This document shows positions 1 through 44,753 of a stretch of DNA of 64,000 bases, one piece after another. The notes under the pieces were generated by a model that was not told where the DNA came from, did not search any database, and saw only the letters and a program-made list of their open reading frames with translations. Every line of letters begins with the position of its first letter. Position 1 is the first letter of the stretch. Position numbers and translations under genes: made by a program. This DNA is from Syntrophales bacterium. GTDB taxonomy: Bacteria > Desulfobacterota > Syntrophia > Syntrophales > UBA8958. Location: contig DAORXN010000003.1 in assembly GCA_035358955.1 (NCBI GenBank), positions 845-64,844 of the forward strand. The letters are read 5' to 3'.

Positions 1-188
1 AAGACTTGGGTATCGATTCTCACCCCATGGACGGTTTCGACCACGAGGCGGTCAGGCAAGCCTTCAACATTCCGGCGAATTTCTTCGTCCCCGTTTTGAT
101 TGCCCTGGGTTATTTCGACCAAAAGTACACCCTCATGCCTCCCAAATGGCGCAAGTCGTGGGATGAAATTGTATGGGGCATTAGTTAG
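1..188 (+). CDS. nitroreductase family protein, C-terminal fragment (5' end outside window)
   Basis: The frame is open to the window edge. The tail ...LGIDSHPMDGFDHEAVRQAFNIPANFFVPVLIALGY... resembles nitroreductase-fold C-termini. Stop is TAG at 186-188. Confidence 0.55.
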   Translation, partial: DLGIDSHPMDGFDHEAVRQAFNIPANFFVPVLIALGYFDQKYTLMPPKWRKSWDEIVWGIS

Positions 189-4146: not shown

Positions 4147-4171
4147 CACTGTGGACGAAGCAAAAAAGAAA

Positions 4172-11528: not shown

Positions 11529-11731
11529 TGAAAAGGGAACAGTACAGAGATTTTGACGCGACCGAACTCTTCTGCCCCCGTTGTCGAAGGGCGGTTCCCG
11601 TGCGCAAGAGGCTGCTTCTCGTCCTCCCGGAAGGTGACAAGTACGACTATTCCTGCGTTTTTTGCGGTACCTCCGTGGGGGATAAGATCGTGCGGGGTGC
11701 AAACGATACGGAGTTGATTATTGTACGTTGA
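11525..11731 (+). CDS. small zinc-ribbon protein (CPRC...CVFC), unknown function
   Basis: 68 aa with two CxxC pairs. The ATG overlaps the nadE stop. Confidence 0.5.
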
Positions 11732-12506
11732 CACCCTTGGGCGGTAGGAACTGAAGGGGGTTCAAGGGTTTCGTATTTTCACGGATTTCGAAGTGGATGA
11801 AGGCCCTTCCGTTTTTTCCCGTGGAGCGGGGGGTGCCGATCTTTTTCCCCTGCACAACCCGTTCCTCCACGCGAACCAGGCGGGAACCCAGATGGGTATA
11901 GATGGTCGTAAAGCCCCGGTCGTGTTTCAAAATTACCGTTTCGCCGAAATCCTTGAGGGAGGCGGAGAAAATGACGGTGCCGTCCGCCGCGGCGATCACG
12001 GGGTCGGATTCTTTCCCATCGATTCGGATGTGGTTGAAGAACATACCACCCGGTTGATGCCCGAAGTTATTCGTAACCTCACCCCGGTAAGGCCAAACGA
12101 AAAGCCGCTTTTCCCCCTTAGTTGTCTCCGGTAAAGGCTTCGGCTCTTCTTTGGGGGGGAGAGGTTTTTTCTCCACCGTTTCCTTGCGTGATGGGGGAGG
12201 AGGAGGTGGCGGTGATGATGAAGTCTTTTTGCCTTTGGTCTCCTTCTTCTGGGTGGCGCCGGGGATGAAAAGCACCGTGTCTTCCTCCAGGTGGGACGAA
12301 AGGTCTTTTATATTGTTTGCCCGGGCGATTTCGAGGACACTTACGTTGTATTGACGGGCTATTTTATGGAGCGTCTCCCCCCGCTCCACTTGGTGGTAGA
12401 TACCGGGCCGATGTCCTCCCCCGCAAGAGGTAAGGAGCATCAAACCGATGGCAAAAGAGAAAAGGCTTATTTTATGAGCGATATTTCGGTTGCGAACCGG
12501 TTTCAA
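11718..12506 (-). CDS. nlpD: LysM + M23 peptidase lipoprotein (NlpD-like)
   Basis: Lipobox LLTSC, a LysM motif ([19 protein letters not shown]), a Pro-rich linker and an M23 domain. Start chosen at TTG 12506, giving MKPVRNRN..., which overlaps the pcm stop. Confidence 0.8.
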
Positions 12507-29624: not shown

Positions 29625-31070
29625 ATGGGGAAAATAGGGAAAATAACCGGTTTCCTGTTAATGCTTTCGATCGTTTGCCCCCTATTGGCGAGAGCCTCAA
29701 GCGGGCCGGCAAAGATAGGCGAAGTGCTTCCCTTGTGGTCGGTCTTGCCGTTTGTCGGCATCCTCCTGTCCATCGCCCTTTGTCCCTTGCTCGTTCCGAG
29801 GTTTTGGCATGAACACTTCGGGAAGGTGGCCGCCTTCTGGGCGCTCGCCTTTGCCCTTCCCTTCCTTTACTTTTTTGGGCCAACGGCGTTTCACGAAATA
29901 GCCCATATTATCATCGTGGATTACATCCCGTTCATCATTCTTCTGTGGAGCCTTTTTACCATTGGTGGCGGGATCGTTGTGAGTGGAACCCTGCGGGGAA
30001 CTCCCCGGGGAAATGTGATCATGCTCCTCATAGGCACCTTCCTTGCTTCCTGGGTGGGAACGACGGGTGCCTCCATGATAATGATCAGGCCAATCTTGCG
30101 TGCGAATAGGGATCGGACCCGGCGCGCGCATATAGTTTGTTTCTTTATTTTCCTCGTCGCCAACATCGGTGGATCTTTGACGCCTTTGGGGGACCCTCCC
30201 CTCTTTCTCGGTTTTTTGCACAACGTGCCCTTTTTCTGGGTGACCGTTCATCTGTTGCCTCAACTCCTCTTTACTTCCGCTATCCTCCTTTTCATATTTT
30301 TCGTTTTGGACACTTACCATTATCGAAAAGAAGAAAGGTCGCAAGTTTCTGAGGAAAGAGAGCGCCTGCGCATAAAAGGTGCTTACAATTTTCTCTTTTT
30401 GGCGGGCGTGGTGGGCGCTATTATCTTGAGTGGCTATTGGCAGACCGGGGCGATCAACGTCTTGGGGGTTCCGGTGTACGTAAGCGATCTGGTGCGCGAA
30501 CTGATTATCATCGTTCTTGGGTTACTTTCATGGTACCTGACCCCAAAGCCACTGCGTGAGGCAAACGACTTCAGCTGGGGGCCAATTCTCGAGGTGGCGA
30601 AACTTTTTGCCGGGATCTTCATCACCATTATCCCGGCTCTCGCCATCCTTCGGGCGGGGATGCATGGCGCCATGTCCGGTTTGATTTCTGTCATCCAAAC
30701 GCCCGCCCACTACTTCTGGGCTACGGGCATATTATCCTCTTTTCTCGACAATGCCCCGACGTATCTTACCTTTTTCAACATGTCCCTCGGTCGCTTGGGC
30801 TTGACGGAAGCCGTTATTCCAGCAGCGCTGGCGGCGGGAGCGGCCACGGCCAATCCACAGTTCATCCTCGATCTGCAGGCCATATCTTTGGGTGCCGTAT
30901 ATATGGGGGCGAATACCTACATCGGAAATGCCCCAAATTTCATGGTAAAGTCCATTGCCGAGGAAGCGGGTGTAAAGATGCCCAGTTTCTTTGGCTACAT
31001 CCTCAAATACTCGTTACCCATTCTCATCCCGGTCTTCTTCCTTGTAGATTTCATCTTTTTTGTGCGATAG
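29625..31070 (+). CDS. ArsB/NhaD-superfamily ion transporter (putative sodium:proton antiporter)
   Basis: About 480-aa polytopic membrane protein. GAGGAGG lies 9 nt upstream of ATG 29625. The family call is from overall resemblance only. Confidence 0.5.
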   Translation: MGKIGKITGFLLMLSIVCPLLARASSGPAKIGEVLPLWSVLPFVGILLSIALCPLLVPRFWHEHFGKVAAFWALAFALPFLYFFGPTAFHEIAHIIIVDYIPFIILLWSLFTIGGGIVVSGTLRGTPRGNVIMLLIGTFLASWVGTTGASMIMIRPILRANRDRTRRAHIVCFFIFLVANIGGSLTPLGDPPLFLGFLHNVPFFWVTVHLLPQLLFTSAILLFIFFVLDTYHYRKEERSQVSEERERLRIKGAYNFLFLAGVVGAIILSGYWQTGAINVLGVPVYVSDLVRELIIIVLGLLSWYLTPKPLREANDFSWGPILEVAKLFAGIFITIIPALAILRAGMHGAMSGLISVIQTPAHYFWATGILSSFLDNAPTYLTFFNMSLGRLGLTEAVIPAALAAGAATANPQFILDLQAISLGAVYMGANTYIGNAPNFMVKSIAEEAGVKMPSFFGYILKYSLPILIPVFFLVDFIFFVR

Positions 31071-31091
31071 TGAAAAGGAGGGTACGGAAGC

Positions 31092-31664
31092 ATGGAAAAG
31101 AAATATTACGAGATCGTCATTTCTGGCCCTCATGAGTATGTGAGAGGGTTTGTCACCGGCATTTTGGTCGGTCGGCACCTGGTGGGAGAGGCATTTTGGG
31201 GCGAGGAGTTTAATCTGGAAAAGGAGAATCCCCTTTCCATGTTGGGTCGCCTCTTGAGCCACCGGAAGGAACAGACGGTAGTCATTGTGGACGCCCGTTC
31301 CTTGGGGGTCTTGGAAGAGGCGATCAGAAAATGGCCCGAACACCTCGATTTGGAGATTATTTCCCGGCTTCCCATTAGCGAGGGCTCTTTTCGCTTTTCT
31401 GTGGAAACCTTTTCTCGTGAAGTTGCCCAGGAGTTGAAAAGCATCTTTTCTTCCCTGCCACCGGGAGTGAAGATGGAGCCCCCTTATCAACCCCGGGAAG
31501 TGGAAATGCCTGAAGGGAAGGGAACGGAGGTTTATGCCCCCCTTCACGATTATGTCTTCCGGATAGCGGGCACTTTAATGGGCCGTATTCCGGCAATCCT
31601 TGCACTGTATGCGAAGCTAAAGCGATACGAGGTAGTGGAGCTTTCCACCATTGAATTCAAGTAG
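31092..31664 (+). CDS. hypothetical cytoplasmic protein
   Basis: 190 aa with a strong AGGAGG Shine-Dalgarno. I recognise no motif. Confidence 0.5.
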   Translation: MEKKYYEIVISGPHEYVRGFVTGILVGRHLVGEAFWGEEFNLEKENPLSMLGRLLSHRKEQTVVIVDARSLGVLEEAIRKWPEHLDLEIISRLPISEGSFRFSVETFSREVAQELKSIFSSLPPGVKMEPPYQPREVEMPEGKGTEVYAPLHDYVFRIAGTLMGRIPAILALYAKLKRYEVVELSTIEFK

Positions 31665-31719
31665 AATGCTTAACTTTAAGAGGCGAAGCCATGCATCGGC
31701 AAAGTAAGGAGGGAAGTAA

Positions 31720-33273
31720 ATGACAGCAGCCGAGCTCATGCTCCTTGTGGCCAAGGCAAACGGCGTGGAAATATGTTTCGCCAACGCCGGGACGACGGAG
31801 TTGCCCATCGTTGCCGCCCTCGATAAGTTAAGTGGAATAAGACCTGTTTTGGGATTGTTCGAGGGCGTCTGCACCGGGGCGGCGGACGGCTACGCGAGAA
31901 TTACGGGACAACCGGCCATGACCCTCCTGCATCTGGGACCCGGCTTGGGAAACGGCATCGCCAACCTTCACAACGCGCGGAGGGCGCGGATGCCCGTCTT
32001 GAACATCGTGGGAGAACATGCCTCCTGGCATGTTCCGTTTGATGCCCCCCTCACGATGGATATCGAGAAACTGGCACAGACCGTCTCCCGCTGGGTGGGA
32101 AAGGTTAAGAAACCGGGAGAGACGGCGGAAAAGACGGTAAAGGCCATTCTGGAGGCAAAGAAAGGGGGAGTGGCGACCCTCATCTGCCCTGCCGATCACA
32201 TGGGGGCTGAGGTGGAAGATGGCGAAATTCCTGACCTTGTCTTTCCATCCTCACCGGTAAATGAAGACCTGATCGAAGAAGCGGCCCGGCTTTTGACCAC
32301 CGGGCGAAAAATGGCCCTCCTGTTGGGAGGAGATGCCTTAAGGGAAAGGGGCCTGAAGGCAGCCGCCCGGATAAGGGCGAAGACGAACTGTGACCTCCTC
32401 TCCGTTACCTTCCCCGCCGTCATGGATCGAGGCGCCCATCTGCCGGAGCTGGTGCGGATACCCTACTTCCCCCGCCACGCGCGCAAGGCGCTGGCACCCT
32501 ATGATGCGTTCCTGCTCGTCGGCACCGATGCGCCGGTGACCTTTTTCGGCTATCCGGGAGAGGAGAGCATGCTTTTAAGGAAAGATCAGGATTTCCTCCG
32601 GATCGATGACCCCGAGGTACATGCGGCGGCCGTCGCGCTGGAGGCCTTAGCCGACGCTATCGCGGCACCCGGCGAGAAGAGCGCCTTGGAAAGCCTTTCC
32701 CGTCCCGTTTCTATCCCCGCTCCGCCCAGGGGCGAACTCAACGTGCAGAGCATGTCGGAGGCTATCGCCGCCCTGCAACCCGAAGGGGTGGTGGTAGTCG
32801 AGGAAGGGCTCATGTCCGGTTACTACTATCATTTGCTTTCTCCTTCCCTTCCTCCCCACACGGTCATGACCTTGACGGGGGGATCCATCGGTTGGGGCCT
32901 CCCGTGTGCCCTGGGGGTGGCCCTCGGTTGCCCTGACCGGCCGGTAATTCTCCTCGAAGCGGACGGAAGCGCCATGTATACCGTCCAGGCCCTCTGGAGC
33001 ATGGCCCGGGAGGACGTGCATGTGATAACCATTATTTGTAACAATAACCGGTATTCCACCATCGGCTACGAGTACAAGGTGGCTTACGGTACCCGCCCAG
33101 GAGCGGCCGGCCAGGCCTTGATCGACCTTGCACCGCCTGCCATCGATTGGGTCGGCCTCGGTCGATCCCTCGGGGTGAAGGCCTCTTATGCCAAAGAGGC
33201 GGAGGAGTTTGCATTCGCCTTGAAGCGCGCCCTTAATGAGCCGGGACCTCACGTGATAGAAGTGAGGCTGTGA
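31720..33273 (+). CDS. thiamine pyrophosphate-dependent enzyme (acetolactate synthase large-subunit-like)
   Basis: The N-terminal TPP-Pyr domain (...FEGVCTGAADGYARITG...) and the C-terminal GGSIGWGLP...EADGSAMYT...NN TPP-binding motif. Confidence 0.75.
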   Translation: MTAAELMLLVAKANGVEICFANAGTTELPIVAALDKLSGIRPVLGLFEGVCTGAADGYARITGQPAMTLLHLGPGLGNGIANLHNARRARMPVLNIVGEHASWHVPFDAPLTMDIEKLAQTVSRWVGKVKKPGETAEKTVKAILEAKKGGVATLICPADHMGAEVEDGEIPDLVFPSSPVNEDLIEEAARLLTTGRKMALLLGGDALRERGLKAAARIRAKTNCDLLSVTFPAVMDRGAHLPELVRIPYFPRHARKALAPYDAFLLVGTDAPVTFFGYPGEESMLLRKDQDFLRIDDPEVHAAAVALEALADAIAAPGEKSALESLSRPVSIPAPPRGELNVQSMSEAIAALQPEGVVVVEEGLMSGYYYHLLSPSLPPHTVMTLTGGSIGWGLPCALGVALGCPDRPVILLEADGSAMYTVQALWSMAREDVHVITIICNNNRYSTIGYEYKVAYGTRPGAAGQALIDLAPPAIDWVGLGRSLGVKASYAKEAEEFAFALKRALNEPGPHVIEVRL

Positions 33274-33342
33274 AAAAATTTGACAGAAAAACTAAAAGGT
33301 AGCATAGTTTTGCCATTCGACAATTTCAGCAGGGGGTGGGCT

Positions 33343-33663
33343 ATGGCAAGAGGCAGGGTGGCGATTTTATCCTTGGCGTGTCTTTTTATATTCCTCTTTT
33401 CTCCCTACTTAATGGCCCAGAATGCACCGGATTTAGAGCGGGGCATTAGGGAATATCAGGCCGACAATTACGAGGAGGCGATCGAGATTCTTTCGCAGGT
33501 GAGGGCCAAGGAACCGACCTCGTCGATGGCCGCATTCTTCCTTGGCATGGCTTACAAGCAGGTGGGTGATTATCCCAAGGCCATAAGGCACCTGGAAGAC
33601 GCCTCCACCCTCAAGCCGCCCGTCAGGGAAGCCCCGGTGGAGCTCATCGATTGCCTTGTCTAG
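33343..33663 (+). CDS. signal peptide + TPR segment of a Slam/DUF560-like outer-membrane protein; ends at in-frame TAG 33661-33663
   Basis: MARGRVAILSLACLFIFLFSPYLMA/QN signal peptide, then TPR repeats (YEEAIEIL..., AAFFLGMAYKQVGDYPKAI...). The frame continues into 33664-34857. Confidence 0.6.
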   Translation: MARGRVAILSLACLFIFLFSPYLMAQNAPDLERGIREYQADNYEEAIEILSQVRAKEPTSSMAAFFLGMAYKQVGDYPKAIRHLEDASTLKPPVREAPVELIDCLV

Positions 33664-34857
33664 ATGAAGAACTACCCGGAAGCAAAGAAATGGGTGGCCG
33701 AGGCAGAGAAATACGCCCTCTTTCCGGCTAAGACGGCTTTTCTCAAGGGCATTATTCTCGCGGCGGAAGGGAAGGCCGAGGAAGCGGTGGCGAGTTTTGA
33801 GAAGGCCAAGAGCCTCGACAAATCCTATGCCCAGGCGGCGGATCTGCAAATCGGCCTCACCTATATAGGGGCCAGGAAGTACGACCAGGCCAGAGAAAGA
33901 TTGCAAGCGGCCATTACCCAGGACCCCGTCTCCGACCTCGCCACCTTTGCACGCAGGTATCAGGACCTGGTGGAACAGAGGAGCTTCCTGGAGCGCCCGC
34001 TCCGATTCACTATAAGTTTACTTGGGCAGTACGATACAAACATGCTCCAGGAACCTTACGCGTGGCCCATGTTAGGGGATATGGGAGAGGAGAAGAGCTA
34101 CGCCATGACCAATACGTTCCGCGTGGACTTCGTGCCCCGCCTCTCCGGTCCCTGGCTATTCAACGCGACCTATGCCCTGGTGAGCAACATCCATCAGAAA
34201 AACGCAACGAGTCACGATCTTTTGGCCAACACCCTCTCCGTGAGCCCCGGCTACAGCTTCGGCCGGGTGGCCTTGAACCTCTTAGCCACCTATACTCATG
34301 TGCTCAGGCGCAATCCGAGCTATGAACGCTACGTGGAGATGTCGGAAGTGGGGCCCCTGCTTCGTTTCATCGTGTCGGAAAATCAACTGGCCGAACTCTT
34401 CAGCGGTTATACGAAGAAGAATTATTTCACCACCCCCTTGGCGCCGGAAGAAGACCAGAGCTCCCACGGTGGAAGCGGATATGTAAGTTACACGTTTTTC
34501 TTCCGCGGTGGGGCCCTGGCCAATGTAAAGTACCGTTACGCCGATGAGCGGGCAGAAGGAGACAACTGGGCCAACGAAGCCCATACCTTCACATTAAATA
34601 CCATCTTTCCCTTGTTCAAGTCCCTCCGCGCCCAGCTGGGAGGCGAGGTGACCATTCAGGATTATAAAAATACCCATACCTTCTTCGGGGAAAAGAGGCG
34701 AGACCGCCTTTATACGGCCATGTTAGGTCTCGTTTACGATATAAACAGGTATGTGAGCCTGACGGCCCAGTATCAGTATACGCGAGGTTACTCCAACATC
34801 TTCCTCTACGATTACAACCGCAACCTATGGTCGGCGGGCGTGGAATTCAGGTTTTAA
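33664..34857 (+). CDS. TPR + ~14-strand beta-barrel part of the same outer-membrane protein (Slam/T11SS-like architecture)
   Basis: More TPR repeats, then about 300 aa of alternating-hydrophobicity strands ending ...NLWSAGVEFRF (the terminal-Phe OMP signature). It has no signal peptide of its own. Confidence 0.55.
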   Translation: MKNYPEAKKWVAEAEKYALFPAKTAFLKGIILAAEGKAEEAVASFEKAKSLDKSYAQAADLQIGLTYIGARKYDQARERLQAAITQDPVSDLATFARRYQDLVEQRSFLERPLRFTISLLGQYDTNMLQEPYAWPMLGDMGEEKSYAMTNTFRVDFVPRLSGPWLFNATYALVSNIHQKNATSHDLLANTLSVSPGYSFGRVALNLLATYTHVLRRNPSYERYVEMSEVGPLLRFIVSENQLAELFSGYTKKNYFTTPLAPEEDQSSHGGSGYVSYTFFFRGGALANVKYRYADERAEGDNWANEAHTFTLNTIFPLFKSLRAQLGGEVTIQDYKNTHTFFGEKRRDRLYTAMLGLVYDINRYVSLTAQYQYTRGYSNIFLYDYNRNLWSAGVEFRF

Positions 34858-34888
34858 ACCTTAAGGCGCTTTGGCGGAGGGTTGATTT

Positions 34889-37800
34889 ATGAAAGCGAAA
34901 AGAAGTGTAACCATTTCGGTTCTGTTGATAATGCTCATGTTAATGCCCTTAACCGTTCTGGCTGCCCCCGTTGGGAAGGTAACTCACCTGGAGGGGCAGG
35001 CGGATGTAACCGTTCAGGGGGTGACGACGCCGTGCAGGCAGGGGATGGAGGTAAACGCGGGAGACATTGTGCGCACGAAGAAACAGTCCCGCGTGGGGAT
35101 TACCCTGGTGGACGGGAATATGATCTGGGTGGCCCCCCTTTCTCGCCTGCGCGTTACCCAGTACAGCCCGGAAGAGGGGAAACAGAACTACTGCGACCTT
35201 TTCCGCGGCAAAACCAGGGTGGTGGTGAACGCCATTGCCAAGGGGTCCTCCTTGGAAGTGCATACACCCACCGCAGTGGCGGGTGTGAGGGGGACGATCT
35301 TTATCGGCTTCTTCGAGCGCGGCCAGAGTGGGTTCATCTTTGAGCGGGGCTCCGGGTACGGTTACAACCGGCAGATGCCCTCCAAGGTGGTTACCATCGA
35401 GGCCGGGCATATCATGGTCGTGCCTAAGACGGATCAGGAACCGGTCGTGCGGCCGGCGACGAGGCAGGAAATAGACCGCCATATACAGGATACGACGGGA
35501 GGGGAGGAAAAGAAGGCAGAGCAGGAGAAACCGACGGAGAAGGCCGCCGAGGGAGCGAAGGAAGAGAAGAAAGAGGCGGAAGCAAAGCAGGCGACGGAGG
35601 CGAAACCGGAGCCGACCACGACGACGGATGCCTCGGTGACCACGCAAGTAGCAGAAACAGAGACAACTACGGTACAGGGCACTACTCCTTCGCCACCGCC
35701 TGTAGAAACGCCGACCGTTCTGCCGGAACCACCTCCACCGGTACCAGTACCCACTGCCACCACGACGGACTTAAAGCCCGTTGACGTTTCCATTGACGGC
35801 ATTTCCGGCCAGTTGACGGGTTCGGTGGACGATAAGACGAATAAAGGCACGTTGAAGTTTGCCGCCGCAGGTGCCCTGCCGAATTTCTCGAAGGTGATAA
35901 GCGGTACTCTCTCCGATGGCAGTAGCCTCGATGCCTATCTCGCCGGGGTGACGGGCTCCTGGAGCGGTCTTTTCTATGGCCTGGCAAAGAAGGGTGAATC
36001 AATCTCGCTTTTTTCTGCCGTCCTGGAAGATAAAAGTTACACCGGTAGCGGCACGCTTTCCGCCTCGGGTACACTGGAGAGAACGTCGGTCTGGAAATCA
36101 ACATCTGGTTTGGCTGAGTATGAGTTTTACGCCCCCTATTTTAGTGGAGTATCTGCCCAGGGGCTGGCGATGGGAATGTCGAACGGTACACTTTACGGTT
36201 ACGAAGGTGCGGCAGGTAAAATATACGGCATCTGGGGCTCCGAGGTGGTCGGTGGCGCTTACGAGGGCGTCCCTGTCTCGGCGACCGTTCCTTTTGGTTA
36301 TGTGCACTATGCAGAGGATGTCCTGGCGGCGGTGGTCGTCGGGACGGGCACTTTAAATGACGATGGCGCGGGGCACGTGCAGATTGGGGTTGATCATGCC
36401 TATTACATGGATGGAGATTACTATGGCGAAGTAGGCATGTCCCATCGCGGCGTCTACGCGGGAACGGACTACCGCGGGATCACGGCCGGTGCCGGGCTGT
36501 TTACCCCCCTGTCGTATAGCGGTTTTGCGTGGGGGTCTTTGTTCGATATCGAGGAGTCGACCCAGGGGTATATTGATGGGCTCGTGGGGGGGACCTCTGG
36601 CCTTCCCTGGTCGGGCAGTGCCGATATAAAAATGCTCGGATGGTATTACACTTATCCGGGAGCAGCGGAAAAAAGGTTGCTCTGGCACGGATTAATCGGG
36701 GACCATGGCTATGGGACGGATGGCAGCTATGTCTATACCGGATACGCTCTGGGTATCTGGGGGGCGGAGATCCCTGGTTCCTATCGAGGAGTCTATTTCA
36801 CCGAGGGGGCGGGCGGCTTTCTGGAAAGCGACGACTTGACTTTTACTTCTTATCCCATCGCCAACCTGCCCCAGGGCTTCGATGGGGTATGGATGGCCCA
36901 GGGGAGCCTTGCCGCGCGGGCCATGTCGGTCCCGCCCGGCTTTGCGATGGCAGGGTTTGCTTACCTCTTTAGCCCCCTTAACCTCACGGGGACTTCCCAG
37001 TCGCCCTCGGTTTTCGGTCAGGGGGAGTTCTGGGCTTCTTTACCTAAAGGCTCGGACGGTCAGATTCTTCCGTGGGGCTTATATGAAGCAGGGACTTCCG
37101 GCGTGGGGCTGCAGGGAGGCATAACGAACTGGGAAGTCATCATGGGCGGGGTGGAAAGCGATTCTTCTTTTTTCGCCTTTTTAGGCGAGTCCCAGGGGAC
37201 GAGGTCCGAGCCGGGGATCATTAGAGGTGAGGCGAGGGGCGATTTTGTAACCCCCACCCTGGTGGGCACCTTTGAGGGCCCCGTTTACGGGGCAGATGAC
37301 GGAAGTGGCAACTGGGGGACGTCCAGTATCGGCACGATGGAAGGAAAACCCAGCCTGTTTGGGGGAGAGTGGACGCATAGCACCATCTATAACGATTCCG
37401 GTACCTGGGCGTGGAACGGCGATTTCGACCGCGCATACTTCGGTCTTACGGAAAGAACGGATGGGAAACTGGATTTTCTCGCGATCGGGGGATTCTGGGA
37501 TAAAGGGTACGGCGCGGCCGGCTACGGCGGGCCTTATATCTTGAGCGGGGCCCTTTATGATTCCCCATCCGGGAGCCGTACCTTGTTCGAAGGTTTCACG
37601 GGTGGAATCATGACTAAGGCGGCGGCGGATTTGTCGGGAACCATCACGGACTACCTGACATCCCTCTATGGCCGGTACGAGGGTGGCAGCTGGCAGGTGG
37701 GGCTCATCCGGGGCGATCTGAGCGGGCACTTCTACGAGATGTTCCGCAATGAACCCGAAGAGAAGCTTTACGACATGTTCCGCCTGAAGGGCACCACGGC

Positions 37801-40800
37801 CGGTCTGGAAGTGAAGGAAAAGACCGCCTTGCTGCCACCTGGACTGGGAGAAAATGATGTATGGATTTATTTCGGTGGATTTTCCAACGTTCGTTTCGCG
37901 GGGAGTTTCGACGGTACGGGGGAGATAATAGGTGATTATTATTGGGGTAAGACGAAGTTCCTCGGATATTCGCAAGGCGATAAAACGATAAGCTTGCCCT
38001 TCGGCATTTACAATCTAAAAATCGGCGCGGGCAATAGTTATTACGAAGATAAGCCGGCGGGAAGTGAGGTTTCTTTCCGCGCCCGAGTGGGGGGTATGGG
38101 AGCATTCGGATACGAGGGTGATGGTTACTGGCTTGCCTCAGTGAACGGTAACTCGTGGATGCCATACGCTGACGGGGCAGATCACGGAACGATCACGGGC
38201 ACCTTGAGCGGCCGCTATCTAACACCGACGCAGATGGGAACCATGACGGGGCCCTTCTACGGGCTCTACCAGGGCTCAGGCGAGGGGACGTGGATAGGCC
38301 TTGCCGTGGGGACCTATGAAGGCGAGAGCCTCGCCATGAGTGCCTCCCTTTCCGGGCATCTGGCCTCCGTCGTGCCGGGATCTTTCAGGGTGCGGGAGTT
38401 CTTGCGCCCCTATTATCGTACCGCGGCGGCACAATCATGGTTCGATCCTCTCCAATATGAGGCCATTTACTTCGTACCCCAAGGGGGAGGGCCGGATATT
38501 ATGCGTACCTTCTCCCACGAGAAAGTAGAAATACCGGGCTCGGATGGATCATATTACGATAAGGGGGTCCCGTACTTCCCGACGGGGAAATGGATGGCCC
38601 TTGAGAAGGGTAACGGCATTACGCAGGTGATCGGGGGCGGTGATACTGATCCAAACTGGTCTCTTGCGGGGGATACTCCGTCGGCCGTAATCAGTCAGAA
38701 CCTATCGTTTTTCGCGAATCCCGATCCCGGCACATCTACCTTTACGTATGGTGTGTTCGTGCCCGCCTACGATGTGATGTGGGAAGGCGTAAACGGCATC
38801 ATGGTGGGAAACGAGATTGAAGGGCGGCTCGGGGTGCTGGCAGGACAAGACCTCTGGACTTCCGCGCCGTCAAACAAGGCTTCCATGGTCATGATGGGCA
38901 CTCACGGTGAATATAGCGGGCATGAGCTCGTATTTATGAGCGGTTATTCCGACTTCGGTAAGGGGGCCTTCTTTGCCGATGTGTTAGGGATCATCCGCAA
39001 GACGGATGCCGCAAGTGGGAATCCCATGGACGGGCTTTTGATCGGTCTTTACGCCGATGGCGAGGGTAAGGTAGGCGTCCTGAAAGGTGAATGGACGGGT
39101 TCCTCCTATCCGGAAATAGGCATGTGGGAGGCGGGGGGAGGTGCCACGGCGGCGATCTACCGGGATGGGACGCTCAAGGATTTTACGGGTAGTTCCGTGA
39201 CCCCAGACGACCTAATAAGTTCCCGCGTTTTAATGGGGGCTTTCGGCCTCGGCACCAACAGTACCCTTTACGGGACCTTTGACGGAAGCGGGTATGTGAG
39301 GACCCCGGTGGGCATCATAGGCCGGACCTATTCTCTCGATGATCAGCCTGATTGGGGCATCTTTCGCCTCACGGCGGGGTTGGTAAATGAATACGACAAA
39401 CCTGCCGGTACGGGGACAGGCTGGAGCGGCACCCTCTTCGGTGACGGGACTTTCGGGCGCTATCCTGGAAGTTCCCCATATAACGATTTGGGTATGTGGT
39501 ACGCGGACCTTACTTCCGGCACGTGGGAAAACGGGAAGATCACGGGCAACTTTGCGGGTGAGTTCGTCACCCTCTTGAAGAAAGGGGCTATCGAAGGCCG
39601 ACTCTTGGGCACCTATGATGGAAATGGTACGTCTTGGCAGGCGGTCGGGGCCGGGACGTGGTCGAAAAGCGAGGAGGTGTACTTTGGAAGCGAGATCTGG
39701 GGAAAGAGCTACGTCCTTACCCACCAAAAATACGGGGGGTTGGTCAAGTACAACTATTCCTACTCCTTTCAGTTTAACGATCAGGGTTACTACCGCTACG
39801 GGAGCGGGGTGCTCACCGAGTGGACAAATCCGTCCTCGCCCGAGAAATATACTTACTATTGGTACGGCATGGAGGGGCCGGAAGGTGCGCCGCAGCGCCA
39901 CATCTGGACCCACACGACGGCGAATGATATCTTCACGTATCAGATAGAGGATTATGAAGACTTAGATGCGTACTACGCTGCCCTGGAAAATCTCGCCCGG
40001 GATCCTAAAACAGGATCACCCATCACCCTCAAGGAAGCGGCAGCTTTTCTGAAGAGTGACTTTAGCGGCGTCTTTGCCGGGCTGGATAACCTCTGGGCGA
40101 ACATCGGCGTGAAAGGCACCCCCGTCTATCTCCTCGGAGATACGAACATGATGGATGCAAAGGGACCCTTCGACCTCTTCCGGGCCGAGGTGGTGAGTGT
40201 GGATCCCTTGGAAAGTTCGGATCCTTATGCAAACTCCAAGAGCCGTGTTTGGGAGGGAAAGTACGGTGCCTACTTCGGCTTCCTGGGTGGTAGAAACGAC
40301 GCCTCGGCACATGCAGATGGTCTTTCCGTCATGTTCAAGGGCTTTTACCTGGATCAGGCTGGGAACTTTGGCCTCCTATATACGGATCCCACGGGCCCCT
40401 TGACCGGTACGGTAAACGAAGAGGTGGGTATGTGGAAAGCGTTAGGAGAGATCTTTGGCTATGCGCTGGGTACGGGTGGCATTTCCGGCGTCACGGCCGA
40501 GAACTTTGCCTCGAAACTTAGTATGGAAGGTTACTATTCTCCTATTTCGCTTTCAGCCGATAACGTGGTGGGTTCGGGCAGTCTTACCATGGAAGTCGTG
40601 GAAAGTACGAATGTCTACCTGCCGGAGCCTTACTTCAATACTTACCGTATTGGCCAGCAGATTTCTGCCGGTACTTACAACGGCACGAGTATCCCCACGG
40701 CCTGGACGTGGACGATGGAGGCAGGAACGGATACCTCTTGGATTCTGACGGAGGTGACGGCAACTAGAAATAACACCTTTGACGCTACCTCTGTCGAAGC

Positions 40801-41422
40801 CCACGTAAACTGGCAGGATGCCCGCACTTATGTAGCGGGGGGAGAAGTGAAGGGTATCTTCAATCCCAGTAATTCCACCTGGAAAGCGGTAGCGAACTCG
40901 TTCCAGATGGAGACGGGGGCCTTGATAAGTAAACTGAACTCGCTTACTTCTGATGAGGCCAGGCAGGCCTTCCAGCAGGCGACACGTATTCCCGCCTTCG
41001 AAATCGGGAGAGCGAATTTAACAGGAATGTATTCGGATGGTCATCTTACCATAGACATGCAGAGTGCTTCCTACGGGATGCGGGACGTCGTTTTCCTTGC
41101 CCCATCCAACGATGCTCGTCCTCAGATTTGGGCGACCGGATCAGTCTCCGGTCATACAACCGGACAGGCCGTTACCCCGGGGACGACGGTTTCGCTTTCT
41201 GATGCGGCAAAGAACATCTCCGCGGATTTCACCTTCAAAGCTTATATGCCTTGCGAGAGCAAGTGGAGTGCCACGGTGAGTGGTAATGCTCCCTCTGGTC
41301 TCGGTAACTATACCAGTGCCTTTACATTCCAGGGTGGGGCTGCCGGTACGATTCAGGGTACCGTCGGAAGTGGTGATTTTACCTTCAGTGGCACGGCGGC
41401 GGGGATCGTACCACCCAAGTGA
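34889..41422 (+). CDS. giant secreted protein: signal peptide, FecR domain, KEA/PT-rich linker, ~1,880-aa Gly/Tyr/Trp/Thr-rich repeat region of unknown fold
   Basis: Uninterrupted 2,177-aa ORF. GGAGGG Shine-Dalgarno, SPI-type signal (TVLA/AP), and the FecR-like GKVTHLEGQADV...GDIVRT...SRVGITLVDGNMIWV...VRGT. Confidence 0.8.
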   Translation: MKAKRSVTISVLLIMLMLMPLTVLAAPVGKVTHLEGQADVTVQGVTTPCRQGMEVNAGDIVRTKKQSRVGITLVDGNMIWVAPLSRLRVTQYSPEEGKQNYCDLFRGKTRVVVNAIAKGSSLEVHTPTAVAGVRGTIFIGFFERGQSGFIFERGSGYGYNRQMPSKVVTIEAGHIMVVPKTDQEPVVRPATRQEIDRHIQDTTGGEEKKAEQEKPTEKAAEGAKEEKKEAEAKQATEAKPEPTTTTDASVTTQVAETETTTVQGTTPSPPPVETPTVLPEPPPPVPVPTATTTDLKPVDVSIDGISGQLTGSVDDKTNKGTLKFAAAGALPNFSKVISGTLSDGSSLDAYLAGVTGSWSGLFYGLAKKGESISLFSAVLEDKSYTGSGTLSASGTLERTSVWKSTSGLAEYEFYAPYFSGVSAQGLAMGMSNGTLYGYEGAAGKIYGIWGSEVVGGAYEGVPVSATVPFGYVHYAEDVLAAVVVGTGTLNDDGAGHVQIGVDHAYYMDGDYYGEVGMSHRGVYAGTDYRGITAGAGLFTPLSYSGFAWGSLFDIEESTQGYIDGLVGGTSGLPWSGSADIKMLGWYYTYPGAAEKRLLWHGLIGDHGYGTDGSYVYTGYALGIWGAEIPGSYRGVYFTEGAGGFLESDDLTFTSYPIANLPQGFDGVWMAQGSLAARAMSVPPGFAMAGFAYLFSPLNLTGTSQSPSVFGQGEFWASLPKGSDGQILPWGLYEAGTSGVGLQGGITNWEVIMGGVESDSSFFAFLGESQGTRSEPGIIRGEARGDFVTPTLVGTFEGPVYGADDGSGNWGTSSIGTMEGKPSLFGGEWTHSTIYNDSGTWAWNGDFDRAYFGLTERTDGKLDFLAIGGFWDKGYGAAGYGGPYILSGALYDSPSGSRTLFEGFTGGIMTKAAADLSGTITDYLTSLYGRYEGGSWQVGLIRGDLSGHFYEMFRNEPEEKLYDMFRLKGTTAGLEVKEKTALLPPGLGENDVWIYFGGFSNVRFAGSFDGTGEIIGDYYWGKTKFLGYSQGDKTISLPFGIYNLKIGAGNSYYEDKPAGSEVSFRARVGGMGAFGYEGDGYWLASVNGNSWMPYADGADHGTITGTLSGRYLTPTQMGTMTGPFYGLYQGSGEGTWIGLAVGTYEGESLAMSASLSGHLASVVPGSFRVREFLRPYYRTAAAQSWFDPLQYEAIYFVPQGGGPDIMRTFSHEKVEIPGSDGSYYDKGVPYFPTGKWMALEKGNGITQVIGGGDTDPNWSLAGDTPSAVISQNLSFFANPDPGTSTFTYGVFVPAYDVMWEGVNGIMVGNEIEGRLGVLAGQDLWTSAPSNKASMVMMGTHGEYSGHELVFMSGYSDFGKGAFFADVLGIIRKTDAASGNPMDGLLIGLYADGEGKVGVLKGEWTGSSYPEIGMWEAGGGATAAIYRDGTLKDFTGSSVTPDDLISSRVLMGAFGLGTNSTLYGTFDGSGYVRTPVGIIGRTYSLDDQPDWGIFRLTAGLVNEYDKPAGTGTGWSGTLFGDGTFGRYPGSSPYNDLGMWYADLTSGTWENGKITGNFAGEFVTLLKKGAIEGRLLGTYDGNGTSWQAVGAGTWSKSEEVYFGSEIWGKSYVLTHQKYGGLVKYNYSYSFQFNDQGYYRYGSGVLTEWTNPSSPEKYTYYWYGMEGPEGAPQRHIWTHTTANDIFTYQIEDYEDLDAYYAALENLARDPKTGSPITLKEAAAFLKSDFSGVFAGLDNLWANIGVKGTPVYLLGDTNMMDAKGPFDLFRAEVVSVDPLESSDPYANSKSRVWEGKYGAYFGFLGGRNDASAHADGLSVMFKGFYLDQAGNFGLLYTDPTGPLTGTVNEEVGMWKALGEIFGYALGTGGISGVTAENFASKLSMEGYYSPISLSADNVVGSGSLTMEVVESTNVYLPEPYFNTYRIGQQISAGTYNGTSIPTAWTWTMEAGTDTSWILTEVTATRNNTFDATSVEAHVNWQDARTYVAGGEVKGIFNPSNSTWKAVANSFQMETGALISKLNSLTSDEARQAFQQATRIPAFEIGRANLTGMYSDGHLTIDMQSASYGMRDVVFLAPSNDARPQIWATGSVSGHTTGQAVTPGTTVSLSDAAKNISADFTFKAYMPCESKWSATVSGNAPSGLGNYTSAFTFQGGAAGTIQGTVGSGDFTFSGTAAGIVPPK

Positions 41423-41437
41423 GGAGAGGTCACGGTT

Positions 41438-41953
41438 TTAACGGCGGGCCGGGGGCTTTACTTCCGGCCCGTTTTTTTTGTCCTGAATGAGGGCGTAAAA
41501 GAGAAGCCCCGCTCCCAACGTGATGGCCGAATCAGCCACGTTAAAGGCAGGCCAGTGGGCGCTACCTAAGAAGAAGTCGAGGAAGTCTATCACCTCCCCT
41601 AACCGGATGCGGTCGATCATGTTGCCCACGGCCCCGGCGAAGATGAGCGATAGGGCGTAAGTAAAAACGGGCGGGCGCTCCGGGTAGCGGCGTAAATAAT
41701 AGAGAATGAGGATCACGGCCAAGATAGCCACGGTCAGGAAAAAAAACGACCTCCAACCCGGGGGGGCCTGGGCGAGAAAACCGAAGGCGGCCCCGGGGTT
41801 TCGAACGTACGTGATGTGAAAGAATCCGGGAATTACGCAAATCGTCGAATGCAAGGAAAGGGTGGAGGCAATCCACCACTTCGAAACCTGGTCGAGGGTA
41901 ACTACGAAAGCGGCGATGAGTAAAAAGGCAAGGTCCCTCTTCCAAAGCTGCAT
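41438..41953 (-). CDS. lspA: lipoprotein signal peptidase II
   Basis: ...DQVSKWWI...ITYVRNPGAAFGF...GNMIDR...FNVAD... are canonical LspA motifs. Start at ATG 41953. Confidence 0.9.
   Translation of the reverse strand: MQLWKRDLAFLLIAAFVVTLDQVSKWWIASTLSLHSTICVIPGFFHITYVRNPGAAFGFLAQAPPGWRSFFFLTVAILAVILILYYLRRYPERPPVFTYALSLIFAGAVGNMIDRIRLGEVIDFLDFFLGSAHWPAFNVADSAITLGAGLLFYALIQDKKNGPEVKPPARR
41446..41479 (+). terminator. rho-independent terminator of the giant gene (embedded in the 3' coding tail of lspA on the other strand)
   Basis: CGGGCCGG...CCGGCCCG stem followed by TTTTTTTT, 24 nt after the TGA at 41420-41422. Confidence 0.6.
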
Positions 41954-41957
41954 GTGT

Positions 41958-44753
41958 TTAGACCCTCGGGGCACATCGTTCGCAGATGTGGGGGTGATTC
42001 GGATTTATGCCCAGATGTTCGCTGTAAATCCAGCAGCGCTGACACTTTTCTCCCGGCGCCTTGCCTACACGGATGATGAGCCCGGGGAGTTCTTCGCTCT
42101 TGAGGGAGACAGGAAAACCTTCCTCCGGCCCGTTAAGCAGGACGCGGGAAACGATTAAGAGGGCCCGCAAATCCTCTTCCCTGCCCGAGAGAACCTCCCT
42201 AATCCTCTCCGGCGCTTGGATGTACACGGCGGCATCCAGGGAGTGGCCGATGATTTTCCTTTGGCGGGCGGCTTCTATGGCCCGCGCGACCTCGGCGCGT
42301 ACGTCGAGGAGGAGCTTCCATCGGGCGGCGAGTTTTTCGTCGAGAAAATTGCTGTTTACCTCCGGGAAGGAAGCGAGATGTACGCTTTCCGTCTTCCCCG
42401 CCCAGTCAGGCAGGTGGGACCATATCTCCTCGGCAGTGAAGGAGAGGATGGGGGCGATAAGGCGGCTCATGGCATCGACGATGAGCCACATGGCCGTCTG
42501 GGCCGAGCGCCGCCCTTTTTCGTCGGGTTTCGAGGTGTAAAGGCGGTCTTTCAAGACGTCGAGATAAAGGGCGCTTAAGTCCACCGTGCAGTAATTGTAC
42601 AGGGTGTAATAGACGATGTGGAATTGATAGCGCTCGTAGGCACCCCTCACGCGGCCGATGACCTCCTGGAGGCGGTGGAGGGCAAAGCGGTCCATCTCCG
42701 TCATCTCTTCGTAAGGGACACGGTCCCTTGCCGGGTTGAAGTCATAGAGGTTTCCCAGGATGAAGCGATTCGTGTTTCTTATGCGCCGGTAGGCTTCGAT
42801 TAAGCGGCTTATGATTTCCTCGGAGATGCGGATATCCACCGTGTAATCCTCGGCGGCCACCCACAGGCGAAGGATCTCTGCCCCATAGCGGTCGATGATC
42901 TCCTGCGGTTCGACCACGTTTCCCAGGGATTTGGACATCTTCTTCCCCTCGCCGTCCACGACGAAACCGTGCGTAAGGACCGTTCGATAAGGGGCGCGAC
43001 CGCGGGTGCCGATGGATTCCAACAAGGAAGAGTGAAACCAGCCCCGATGCTGGTCGCTTCCCTCCAGGTACATATCGGCCGGCGAACGAAGATCGGCCCT
43101 CGTCTCCAGGACGGCAGCGTGGCTGACGCCGGAGTCAAACCAGACATCGAGGATGTTCGTCTCCTTCCTGAAGGGGCCCGGACTGCCGCAGTGGGGACAC
43201 GTGCTTCCGGGAGGCAGGAGCCCCTCCGCCTCACGTTCGAACCAGACGTCGGCGCCGTGATGGCGGACAAGGTCCACGACGTGGTTCAGGATTTCTTCCG
43301 TAAGGAAATCCCCGCCACACTTGCGGCAGTAAAATACGGTAATCGGCACGCCCCAGAGCCTCTGGCGCGAAATACACCAGTCGGGGCGGTTTTCTATCAT
43401 GGCATAGATGCGGTCCTCTCCCCAGGCGGGTATCCAGGTCACGCCCCGGATGGCCTCCAGGGCCTTTTTCCTCAGGTCGTTCTTCTCCATAGAGATGAAC
43501 CACTGCTCCGTGGAACGGAAGATGATGGGCTCCTTGCAGCGCCAGCAGTGGGGATAGGAGTGTTCCATCTCCAGATAGCCCAGGAGATTTCCCGCTGCCT
43601 TCAGGCGCTCGATGACATGCGCATTGGCAGCAAAGACGAATTCCCCGGCAAAGTACTCTACGTCGGGGGTAAATTTACCTTCTTCATCGACGGGGGCGTA
43701 ATTTTCCAGGCCGTAGGCCATGCCTATTTCATAGTCTTCCTGACCGTGGCCGGGGGCGATATGAACAAGCCCCGTCCCCGCATCCAGGGTGACGAAGGGG
43801 GCCAGGATGAGGACGCTCTCCCTCTCGTAGAGGGGATGGTGGGCCTTTTCCCCTTCCAGTACCTTGCCGGGGAACTCCGCGATGACCTCGTAGGGCAGAT
43901 TTCTGAAGCCAAAGGCCTCCCGGCAGTAATCCACGAGCTCCGCCGCCACGATGTACACTTCGCCTGCGACCTTGAGGGCGGCATAGGAAAAGTCCTCGTG
44001 CACGGCAATGGCAAGGTTCGCGGGAATCGTCCAGGGGGTCGTGGTCCAGATGACGTAGCTTACCCGTTCCCCCTTCAGGGCGGGTATCTTTTCTCCCAGA
44101 TCCGTGATGGCGGGAAACTTCACATAGATGGAGGGGGTTATGTGGCTGTCGTATTCCACCTCCGCCTCGGCGAGGGCGGTCTTGCAGGAGGCACACCAGT
44201 AAACGGGCTTTTTCCCCTTGTACACGGAACCCGCCAGGTAGAGCCGGCCAAATTCACGGACCGTGATGGCCTCGTATTCGTAAGACATGGTGAGATAGGG
44301 ATTTTGCCAGTCCCCGAAGGCGCCCAGGCGCTTGAACTGGTCGCGCTGGATGGCGACGTACTTTTCCGCGTAAGCGCGACAGGCCCTTCTCTTCTCCGCC
44401 TGAGAAATGGAAAGCCTCTTTTCTCCTAACTCCTTGTCCACCTGGTGTTCGATGGGCAGGCCGTGGCAATCCCAGCCCGGCACGAAGACGGTATCGAAAC
44501 CGCTCATGTTCTTCGACTTTATAACGATGTCCTTTATTATCTTGTTCAGGGCCGTGCCCAGATGGATGTTACCGTTGGCGTAAGGGGGGCCGTCGTGCAG
44601 GATGAAGGGCGGTCTGCCCTTCGATGCCTCCCTAATTTTTCGATAGATGTCCCATTCTTCCCAGCGAGCAAGTATCTCCGGTTCCCGGGTGGTGAGATTG
44701 GCCTTCATGGGAAATGAGGTCTGCGGGAGGTTCAAGGTGTCTTTATAGTCCAT
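41958..44753 (-). CDS. ileS: isoleucyl-tRNA synthetase
   Basis: [12 protein letters not shown]..., a HIGH-type motif ([11 protein letters not shown]), KMSKS and C-terminal Zn-finger Cys pairs. 931 aa from ATG 44753. Confidence 0.95.

Follow-up and report, generated by a model that had tools for sequence, protein, structure and literature searches.

A Slam-like outer-membrane barrel gene and its FecR-headed partner, a gene pair recurring in at least six bacterial phyla

What does a gene for an outer-membrane barrel do directly in front of a gene for a secreted protein of 2,177 amino acids (aa), and what is conserved when the two are found together elsewhere? The question is raised by a locus in a 64,000-nucleotide (nt) stretch of DNA from a Syntrophales bacterium (assembly GCA_035358955.1, contig DAORXN010000003.1, positions 845 to 64,844), referred to as a whole as the window. 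The upstream gene, here the barrel gene, encodes a TPR domain followed by a beta-barrel, the layout of the Slam proteins of the type XI secretion system (T11SS). The downstream one, here the giant gene, encodes a protein that starts with a signal peptide and a FecR-type domain, here the FecR head. The original prediction took the two for a Slam/DUF560 translocator and its adjacent cargo. What emerges from the analysis is an undescribed partner system of several phyla, made of a Slam-like barrel protein and a FecR-headed protein, in which the partner has been enlarged in the Desulfobacterota to giants that end in a new C-terminal domain (C-domain).

Pairing of the barrel gene with FecR-headed genes

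A search with the barrel gene gives 78 species-representative loci, all Desulfobacterota (Syntrophales, Smithella, Desulfobacterales and Desulfatiglandales). Enough downstream sequence is present at 71 of them, and at 64 of those a gene with a FecR head lies downstream on the same strand, at a distance of 400 nt or less in 51 cases and of 0.4-3 kb in the other 13. Weak FecR-head matches occur at three more barrel loci. The reverse search started from the FecR head with the pattern TPTAV[CAV]GVRG, and a barrel gene is found upstream at 51 of 63 loci, within 400 nt at 41 of these. The FecR-head loci having a barrel gene span six phyla, including Nitrospirota, Planctomycetota, Omnitrophota, Binatia and WOR-3, while those of Spirochaetia and Bdellovibrionota are generally without one. 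A conserved neighborhood of the barrel homologs was what the original prediction had named as a test of the linkage, and it is seen in both directions. Because the flanking genes vary between loci the pair travels as a unit, and because the pairing survives these changing neighborhoods in six phyla the two genes are functionally linked. We searched the literature for FecR-domain proteins that have an outer-membrane TPR protein as partner, and no paper on these two genes turned up.

Partner open reading frames (ORFs) at the barrel loci run from about 200 to 3,200 aa, and the C-domain is present in 35 of the 45 complete ones (these 35 measure 612-3,195 aa) and missing in 10. Outside Desulfobacterota the partner is often just 283-435 aa, consisting of a signal peptide, the FecR domain and a tail rich in Pro and Thr. 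Minimal partners of this kind are found in Binatia, WOR-3, Planctomycetota and one unclassified genome at L152:3920-4774, L155:1113-2363, L165:1934-2782 and L166:3812-5116. Since the short partners hold nothing else, what is conserved universally on the partner side is the FecR head together with its linker, and not a C-terminal cargo barrel.

Some loci have genes inserted between the members of the pair. In Desulfobacterales, these are a VpsT/CsgD-like LuxR regulator (215-230 aa, GerE at 75.8 bits) and a PilZ protein (110-135 aa), which suggests cyclic di-GMP (c-di-GMP) or biofilm-type control of the module. The loci with this insertion are L024:11513-12802, L026, L036, L038, L043, L077, L081, L083 and L087. 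In Desulfatiglans-type loci the insertion is a Skp/OmpH gene and a gene for an SLT lytic transglycosylase of about 470 aa (L060:7085-9124, L063:11621-13655, L050:15191-17251). Slam-dependent translocation of TbpB requires the chaperone Skp (PMC9090332). L050 has one barrel gene followed by two FecR-headed proteins, and one other locus has a Crp/Fnr regulator between the pair. In Desulfobacteraceae Eth-SRB1, an IS200-type Y1 transposase gene (L002:11740-12282) separates the barrel gene from a gene for a 2,495-aa FecR giant, and the flanks encode more giant Ig-like and invasin-like proteins. Two paralogous pairs stand back to back about 5 kb apart in L023 and L025 (Syntrophus/Syntrophales), at 2310-4689 on the minus strand and 9995-12224 on the plus strand, and several genomes have pairs on separate contigs, for example L019 with L034, L021 with L035, and L024 with L053.

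The barrel protein and its interrupted gene

In the window, the unit has the following layout.

33280..33308, plus strand: promoter-like site TTGACA-17 nt-CATAGT upstream of the barrel gene, matching the consensus at 10 of 12 positions
33343..34857, plus strand: barrel-protein gene, 504 codons from the ATG at 33343 to the TAA at 34857, with an in-frame TAG
34858..34888, plus strand: spacer of 31 nt with a GGAGG ribosome-binding site 8 nt before the ATG
34889..41422, plus strand: gene of the giant secreted protein, 2,177 aa
41443..41473, plus strand: intrinsic terminator, a 13-bp stem with 9 G-C pairs and then a T run, 21 nt past the stop of the giant gene

The barrel gene and giant gene read as one operon, because the gap between them is 31 nt with a GGAGG and no terminator, because the promoter-like site is single (it is the sole sigma-70-like match within 33000-42100), and because there is a single strong terminator. 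The upstream flank is a thiamine-diphosphate (TPP) enzyme gene (31720-33273), and the downstream flank is lspA and ileS on the opposite strand. The factual statements of the original prediction all check out. The barrel ORF does run in one frame across one TAG, the giant ORF does begin 31 nt downstream with a signal peptidase I (SPI) leader, no lipobox and a FecR domain, and the unit does have its own terminator and its place between a metabolic gene and lspA-ileS.

The barrel protein has these parts.

33343..33417, plus strand: signal peptide, residues 1-25, MARGRVAILSLACLFIFLFSPYLMA followed by Q at the putative cleavage site, read from the translation
33427..33990, plus strand: periplasmic TPR domain, residues ~29-216, from Pfam TPR matches and 11 helices in the homolog model
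33661..33663, plus strand: in-frame TAG at codon 107 with an ATG directly after it (..LIDCLV, stop, MKNYPEAKKW..)
33985..34854, plus strand: 14-strand beta-barrel domain, the last 290 residues, with the beta-signal ..GVEFRF at its end, from Pfam and the homolog model

The leader reads as a signal-peptidase-I leader and is a single N-terminal helix in the homolog model. TPR_19, TPR_2 and TPR_16 score 50-58 bits on residues 30-200, and TPR_Slam scores 20.1 bits, which is under its cut-off of 35.2. The protein terminates in ..WSAGVEFRF, the outer-membrane-protein (OMP) type of ending that had been noted at the outset. Homologs of about 505 aa without an interruption number 339, and the AlphaFold2 model was made on one of these, P0001, which is 84% identical to the window protein, with a 51-sequence alignment. 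It has a predicted local distance difference test (pLDDT) score of 90.3 and consists of the signal helix, 11 TPR-type helices (29-216) and 14 strands (220-503), in agreement with the Sec signal, TPR repeats and roughly 14 strands counted in the original prediction.

Is this barrel a Slam barrel? In Slam/T11SS proteins a periplasmic TPR domain at the N-terminus precedes a DUF560 barrel of 14 strands, and of the ten DUF560 network clusters only cluster 1 has known cargo (PMC8406197). In Table S1 of that paper, TPR proteins from Deltaproteobacteria (Candidatus Magnetomorum, Syntrophorhabdus) belong to cluster 7, which is uncharacterised. The Pfam family for DUF560 is SlipAM (PF04575), with 288 profile positions and a gathering cut-off of 22 bits. 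Reading the TAG as Gln, the full-length protein scores 21.2 bits against SlipAM over residues 291-494, just under the cut-off, and the window barrel alone (290 residues) scores 24.9 bits over profile positions 77-278. Among distant FecR-paired barrels, L136 (Nitrospirae) scores 31.6 bits over positions 39-278 of the 288, L143 scores 26.4 and L134 scores 23.3. Other families score as well: the full-length protein has 35.9 bits to BBP2_2 over the last 60 residues only and 24.3 to DUF2860, and the barrel alone has 37.3 (again the last 60 aa only) and 25.9. When 37 barrels of the family are run against Pfam, BBP2_2 matches 37, OMP_b-brl matches 20 and DUF2860 matches 17. BBP2_2 and DUF2860 cover only the C-terminal part of the barrel, and SlipAM/DUF560 is the sole Pfam family aligned across most of it. 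A match to a different OMP family with no DUF560 similarity had been foreseen as the outcome that would sink the Slam idea; here other families do match, over the C-terminal part only and beside a marginal DUF560 similarity. The architecture agrees with Slam, and the SlipAM score is over the cut-off for the barrel taken alone and under it for the full-length protein, with no match in the majority of relatives.

Searches of the Protein Data Bank (PDB) add the following. The full barrel-protein profile retrieves TPR proteins only and the barrel-only profile retrieves nothing. Foldseek with the P0001 model gives BcsC the best E-value with a poor overlay, a template modeling (TM) score of 0.30-0.32, and the best barrel overlays are to the 14-strand OmpG, CymA and FadL (TM 0.5-0.63 on target). 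A BcsC/PgaA-type exopolysaccharide porin was rejected on the 14 strands of the model, the TM score to BcsC, and the absence of synthase genes nearby. Taken together, the barrel protein appears to be a distinct family at the edge of the DUF560 superfamily, with the Slam architecture and marginal sequence membership.

The in-frame TAG leaves 106 aa (the signal peptide and three TPR helix pairs) upstream and 397 aa downstream. At codon 107, Gln is found in the nearest relatives (CAA in L001) and Arg in those further away, and the ATG after the TAG is the native Met or Leu position. A product restarted there would be without an export signal. Because the TAG splits the signal peptide from the barrel, a working barrel protein is probably not made, and the TAG probably disables the gene in this strain. 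At least 21 contigs from JGI, ENA and Logan assemblies carry the allele, and its occurrence in different assemblies means that it is no read error of the window. The seven TAG contigs compared with the window (L005-L011) match it at 100% DNA identity along as much as 7.2 kb (30664-37857), and hence are one clone recovered repeatedly. The species of this clone is absent from the barrel-gene matches in the species-representative genome collection, where the best match is 81% identical. Against the nearest relative, synonymous sites of the barrel gene are saturated, and non-synonymous divergence is 0.125 in the barrel part as compared to 0.19 in the neighboring TPP enzyme; any inactivation is therefore recent.

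A second stop is found at the same aligned codon, a TGA (L013:1159-1161), in uncultured Syntrophaceae SRP098346_co1_212, whose barrel protein is 55% identical. A close intact relative of that lineage, L168, has CGC (Arg) there. The chance of two independent nonsense mutations at the same codon is 0.005-0.02, and in that lineage the ratio of non-synonymous to synonymous divergence (dN/dS) amounts to 0.12 upstream of the stop and 0.14 downstream. The stop might then be decoded, by pyrrolysine, a suppressor tRNA or programmed read-through, with full-length barrel protein being made and the stop acting as a regulatory valve. The coincidence of codon, the dN/dS that is as low after the stop as before it, and the intact giant gene speak for this. 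We nevertheless think it highly improbable, since 9 of the window's 43 long ORFs have TAG as their normal stop, since the stop codon differs between the two lineages, an argument against pyrrolysine or selenocysteine, and since are clonal with close intact relatives, as expected of recent mutations. Furthermore, 76 of the 78 species loci have no stop at codon 107, and a split gene occurs in just these 2 of about 80 species. Genome-wide reassignment of TAG was rejected on the same count of ordinary stops. The simplest reading of the codon-107 coincidence would be repeated selection for loss with few mutable codons. Since several genomes have paralogous pairs, a paralog could replace the interrupted barrel gene in the strain of the window.

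The giant protein

The giant protein is divided as follows.

34889..34963, plus strand: signal peptide, residues 1-25, SPI-type, ..MPLTVLA followed by AP at the putative cleavage site, read from the translation
34964..35473, plus strand: FecR-type N-terminal domain, residues ~26-195, by Pfam, present in every partner protein
35276..35299, plus strand: conserved motif A-V-A-G-V-R-G|T, residues 130-137, at least 90% conserved
35477..35788, plus strand: low-complexity linker rich in Glu, Lys, Pro and Thr, residues ~197-300, by composition
35789..40585, plus strand: variable body rich in Gly and aromatic residues, residues ~301-1899, with no Pfam match
40586..41419, plus strand: conserved C-domain, residues 1900-2177, ~270 aa, by alignment A4 and a structure model

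FecR (PF04773, gathering score 24 bits) is the only Pfam match of the protein, at 40.1-45.3 bits over residues 60-140, and the family profile of the FecR head scores 315 bits on it. The most conserved stretch of the head is EVHTPTAVxGVRGTxF. In the profile alignment, G134-T135 falls on the self-cleavage site G181/T182 of E. coli FecR, with GVRG|T over ALG|TEF, and the Pfam model coordinates agree. Of 106 heads, 96 have G[VIL][RK]GT, with GVRGS and ARGC among the exceptions, and in 103 the Gly is followed by a nucleophile T, S or C. E. coli FecR self-cleaves at Gly181/Thr182 and FoxR does so via an N-O acyl shift; in the characterised systems the FecR domain works in the periplasm, where it binds the periplasmic part of an outer-membrane protein, and it self-cleaves at Gly/Thr (PMC12036975). 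By conservation of the site, the giant-protein head may self-cleave at G134/T135. Weak NCBIfam matches of the head are to the Leptospira proteins Lsa33, LipL45 and Lsa19 (35-40 bits, where the family cut-offs are 250-420), and retention_LapA matches residues 30-134 at a non-significant E = 0.028.

A FecR-type anti-sigma factor was tried and rejected. The E. coli FecR control has DUF4880, FecR and FecR_C in Pfam, whereas the giant protein has the FecR domain only, and there is in it no anti-sigma domain (DUF4880), no FecR_C/STN-like domain and no transmembrane segment to serve as anchor. Nearby there is neither an ECF sigma factor nor a TonB-dependent receptor to act as transducer, the neighbors being the TPP enzyme and lspA.

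The leader has no lipobox. A linker similar to the one in the window follows the FecR domain in most relatives and, in the short partners of other phyla, makes up the entire tail. Gly makes up 14.7% of the whole protein, and there are three cysteines only (positions 49, 102 and 2122), none of them in the body, in which Cys is about tenfold depleted (0.10% vs 1.1%). Proteins that traverse the outer membrane in an unfolded state typically show strong Cys depletion. Self-BLAST finds no internal repeats. The C-domain profile, however, matches the body weakly at 424-468, 1078-1121 and 1536-1592, and homologs cross-match several regions of the protein, which together suggest a body built of very divergent copies of one related beta-module. 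Such copies would explain why short motifs are enriched, without making them TbpB-like. The repeated motifs reported in the original prediction are indeed above chance (GP[FV]YG 2 vs 0.01 expected, G.[FY].G 19 vs 4.8, GT[WY] 7 vs 2.2), but their resemblance to modules of TbpB/fHbp/hemophilin-type cargo did not bear out, as there is no TbpB_B_D match in Pfam. The 41 homologs found all have FecR and share the first ~200 and last ~230 residues, and in some of them the middle is swapped for Ig-like domains (Big_13, PKD, Y_Y_Y).

The C-domain has in its alignment of 28 sequences (A4) the motifs KGxFDP..TW, NIPxxxVG, VTFFAxSTGxxPxIWAT and FxGGAAG...GTFSGTAAG. The model (pLDDT 93.9, predicted TM score 0.90) has 7 strands, 2 helices and 9 strands. 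No match to it is found in Pfam, PDB sequences, PDB folds or viral folds (BFVD) with Foldseek, and PDB sequence searches with the giant protein and with its C-domain gave nothing meaningful. The best Foldseek E-value against PDB is 0.014, and TbpB comes second with E = 0.016, a probability of 0.08 and a TM score of 0.11. This is a new domain without structural match. A TbpB-like cargo reading was rejected in that the 8-strand targeting barrel (of TbpBBD, lipoprotein C or hemophilin type) is not found by Pfam, PDB sequence search or Foldseek. An autotransporter (T5aSS) was likewise rejected: there is no autotransporter Pfam match, the giant protein ends ..AAGIVPPK, and the predicted C-domain strands are polar (rich in T, S, Q and G). 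From its sequence the C-domain is probably a soluble fold rather than a membrane barrel.

The C-domain profile run against 1.84 billion representatives finds 638 proteins, 475 of them below 1e-30, nearly always at the extreme C-terminus. Of the newly found representatives, 106 are 550 aa or longer; 65 of these are seemingly N-terminally complete, each with the FecR head, and the other 41 look N-terminally truncated. The distribution covers Desulfobacterota and at least one Nitrospirota locus (L130).

As for the rest of the window, it encodes acyl-CoA dehydrogenase, ETF-QO, thiolase, acyl-CoA ligase and similar genes, the nearest relatives of the locus are in Syntrophales genomes assembled from metagenomes, and an Rfam scan of the whole window has no matches. 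A 190-aa ORF at 31092-31664, between a citrate-transporter-like gene and the TPP enzyme gene, has no match in Pfam or NCBIfam and is called as a gene in matching public contigs. A cluster of uncharacterised envelope-type genes occupies 188-7596. It includes a TPR protein of 219 aa at 1184-1843, a 768-aa membrane protein with a YfhO-like C-terminus at 1840-4146, ORFs 188-1183 and 4019-5722 without Pfam match, and a 635-aa TPR protein on the minus strand at 5689-7596.

How the pair may work and what it resembles

We hold with about as much belief as doubt that the operon encodes a dedicated outer-membrane partner system, in which the FecR head is docked and the body displayed or exported. The barrel protein would be Slam-like and distantly related to DUF560, with its TPR domain in the periplasm and its 14-strand barrel in the outer membrane. 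The giant protein would be exported by Sec, its FecR-type head may dock on the barrel protein, with the TPR domain as the likeliest site, and the linker and Cys-poor body would pass through or along the barrel to the cell surface, where the exposed variable body might serve as adhesin or matrix protein. Because the head retains the Gly/Thr motif, the surface part could be non-covalently held and releasable, self-cleavage at that site speculatively turning the tether into such a joint. As the short partners carry no passenger, we favor docking and tethering as the basic role, to which the export of a large body would be an addition.

Several points weigh against this. Cargo export cannot be the universal role of the pair when short partners have no passenger, and we know of no precedent for passage of a 2,000-aa chain via a 14-strand barrel. 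Neither Pfam nor Foldseek finds in the giant protein the C-terminal 8-strand barrel by which known T11SS cargo is recognised. The DUF560 similarity appears real but lies at threshold level: SlipAM is found at E of 1 or less in just 8 of the 37 family barrels, which BBP2_2 and DUF2860 match as well, and neither Foldseek of the P0001 model against PDB nor the PDB search with the barrel profile gave a solved Slam structure. Finally, an interrupted barrel gene beside an intact giant gene is easily explained only by a recent mutation, a paralogous barrel or read-through.

Three other accounts have to be set against the docked partner system. In a strict type XI secretion, a Slam ortholog would read the C-domain of the giant as targeting signal and release or flip the protein, the FecR head being mere cargo. 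The barrel-protein architecture is the same, SlipAM is at or over its cut-off in several members, some loci have a skp gene inside, and the giants of Desulfobacterota and Nitrospirota have a conserved beta-rich C-domain after a variable region, like the cargo layout in PMC8406197 and PMC12282271. We still regard it as quite unlikely, because the C-domain has no sequence or fold similarity to the TbpB, fHbp and hemophilin barrels, because the pairing is kept though 10 of 45 complete partners and all short partners of the other phyla miss the C-domain, and because the element always conserved is the head at the other end. That the original prediction knew of no described T11SS substrate class with a FecR-domain cargo of this size agrees with the T11SS literature, where we found no cargo class with a FecR head and FecR appears only among sigma/TonB regulators near cluster-1 genes. 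There it is listed 201 times (PF04773) beside cluster-1 T11SS genes with Sigma70_r2/r4 and TonB_C, as iron-uptake regulators and not cargo (PMC12282271 supplement).

The FecR protein could instead stay in the periplasm on the TPR domain, as a scaffold or a signalling partner in the style of FecR/FecA. That is how characterised FecR domains behave, being periplasmic, binding the periplasmic domain of the outer-membrane partner and self-cleaving at Gly/Thr (PMC12036975). The short partners, with FecR and a Pro-rich tail, resemble periplasm-spanning tethers, and some loci have a lytic transglycosylase gene. We consider such a complex unlikely, in view of the lack of an anti-sigma domain, transmembrane segment, nearby ECF sigma factor or TonB-dependent receptor; moreover, bodies of 1,000-3,000 aa, Ig-like adhesin domains and Cys depletion better suit surface proteins, and NCBIfam names Lsa33 and Lsa19 of Leptospira adhesins or surface adhesins and LipL45 a lipoprotein. 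That the genes are mere neighbors, with the barrel a BcsC/PgaA/EpsL-type TPR-porin for polysaccharide or solute and the giant exported by another route, is very improbable. BcsC does top the Foldseek list by E-value, and BBP2_2 and EpsL do match the C-terminal strands. The BcsC overlay is poor, though (TM 0.3), BcsC-type barrels have 16 strands against 14 in the model, the BBP2_2/EpsL matches are limited to the last 60-90 residues, the neighborhood within the window has no polysaccharide synthase genes, and a six-phylum pairing amid changing neighborhoods is hard to account for by chance adjacency.

A bolder form of the docked partner system, which we offer as a long shot of about the same standing as the periplasmic complex, would have a system in at least six phyla in which a Slam-like barrel holds surface proteins, some above 3,000 aa, by a self-cleaving FecR head. 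The head would sit on the periplasmic TPR domain, the linker would be threaded through the barrel with the body outside, and the two fragments would be joined non-covalently, making an analogue of the LapA/LapG tether from different parts. A force or signal could release the adhesin, and the codon-107 stops would come from repeated selection for switching the display off.

To our knowledge, function and cargo of Slam/DUF560-like barrels are known only for a handful of host-associated Proteobacteria and for none of the environmental ones. The pair is a concrete, strongly conserved candidate partner class for one Slam/DUF560-like branch, one that departs from the current T11SS cargo rule of a C-terminal 8-strand barrel. 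If true, the docked partner system would be a route for syntrophic and sulfate-reducing Desulfobacterota to surface giant adhesin-like proteins without type I or type V machinery, and giant-protein display would have a bearing on how methanogenic consortia aggregate. For the non-regulatory FecR domains, which are widespread, it would provide a testable job as a docking and possibly self-cleaving tether. The minimal pairs, a 500-aa barrel protein with a 285-aa partner, are small enough to reconstitute directly and are suited to experiments.

Several known systems share parts of this arrangement. The anti-sigma factors FecR, FoxR and PupR with their FecA-type transducers also have a FecR domain with Gly/Thr and an outer-membrane barrel partner with a periplasmic domain, but the giant protein is without DUF4880, membrane anchor and FecR_C/STN-like domain and has a cleavable Sec signal instead. 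LipL45, Lsa33 and Lsa19 of Leptospira, the best NCBIfam matches of the head, have the FecR domain outside anti-sigma signalling, in envelope or surface proteins. They are small, LipL45 is a lipoprotein, and our head scores far under the family cut-offs; we know of no paired TPR-barrel gene for them. The RTX adhesins of LapA type, held in LapE, follow a logic like the one proposed here, with a periplasmic N-terminal module, a linker in the pore, an adhesin outside and release by cleavage near the N-terminus, and to the LapG/LapD control by c-di-GMP correspond the PilZ protein and VpsT-like regulator at some loci. LapA differs in using type I secretion with no signal peptide, a TolC-like trimeric pore, and genes for an ABC transporter and a membrane fusion protein, none of which is present here. 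The TPR-porins BcsC, PgaA and EpsL/BBP2_2 also put a barrel after a TPR domain, with BcsC the top Foldseek E-value and the last strands matching BBP2_2/EpsL; they are 16-strand barrels, and here the overlay is poor (TM 0.3), there is no synthase operon, and the matches are confined to the C-terminal beta-signal region.

Two-partner secretion (type Vb, T5bSS; FhaC/FHA) likewise combines an outer-membrane transporter with a huge, Sec-dependent, Cys-poor adhesin-like protein in which an N-terminal recognition domain is the only region conserved throughout. It was rejected as an identification. The barrel here is not Omp85 and has no POTRA and 14 strands in the model rather than 16, the N-terminal domain is of FecR type and not a TPS beta-helix, and the transporter gene comes first; in Pfam there is no POTRA, ShlB or Bac_surface_Ag match for the barrel protein and no TPS/Haemagg_act match for the giant protein. 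The nearest comparison is to Slam/T11SS, as in Neisseria Slam1 and Xenorhabdus NilB/HrpB, which share the signal peptide, N-terminal periplasmic TPR domain, 14-strand barrel and adjacent partner gene. SlipAM aligns over most of the barrel at 23-32 bits in several members, skp, whose product Slam translocation needs, lies within some loci, and Deltaproteobacteria TPR proteins are already in cluster 7 of the DUF560 network. Unlike in Slam, similarity to SlipAM lies at the level of the Pfam cut-off and most members of the family do not show it, and the partner is no lipoprotein and has no TbpB-type 8-strand barrel. It is defined by an N-terminal FecR head and linker and can exceed 3,000 aa, and its hosts are Desulfobacterota, Nitrospirota, Planctomycetota, Omnitrophota, Binatia and WOR-3 rather than host-associated Proteobacteria.

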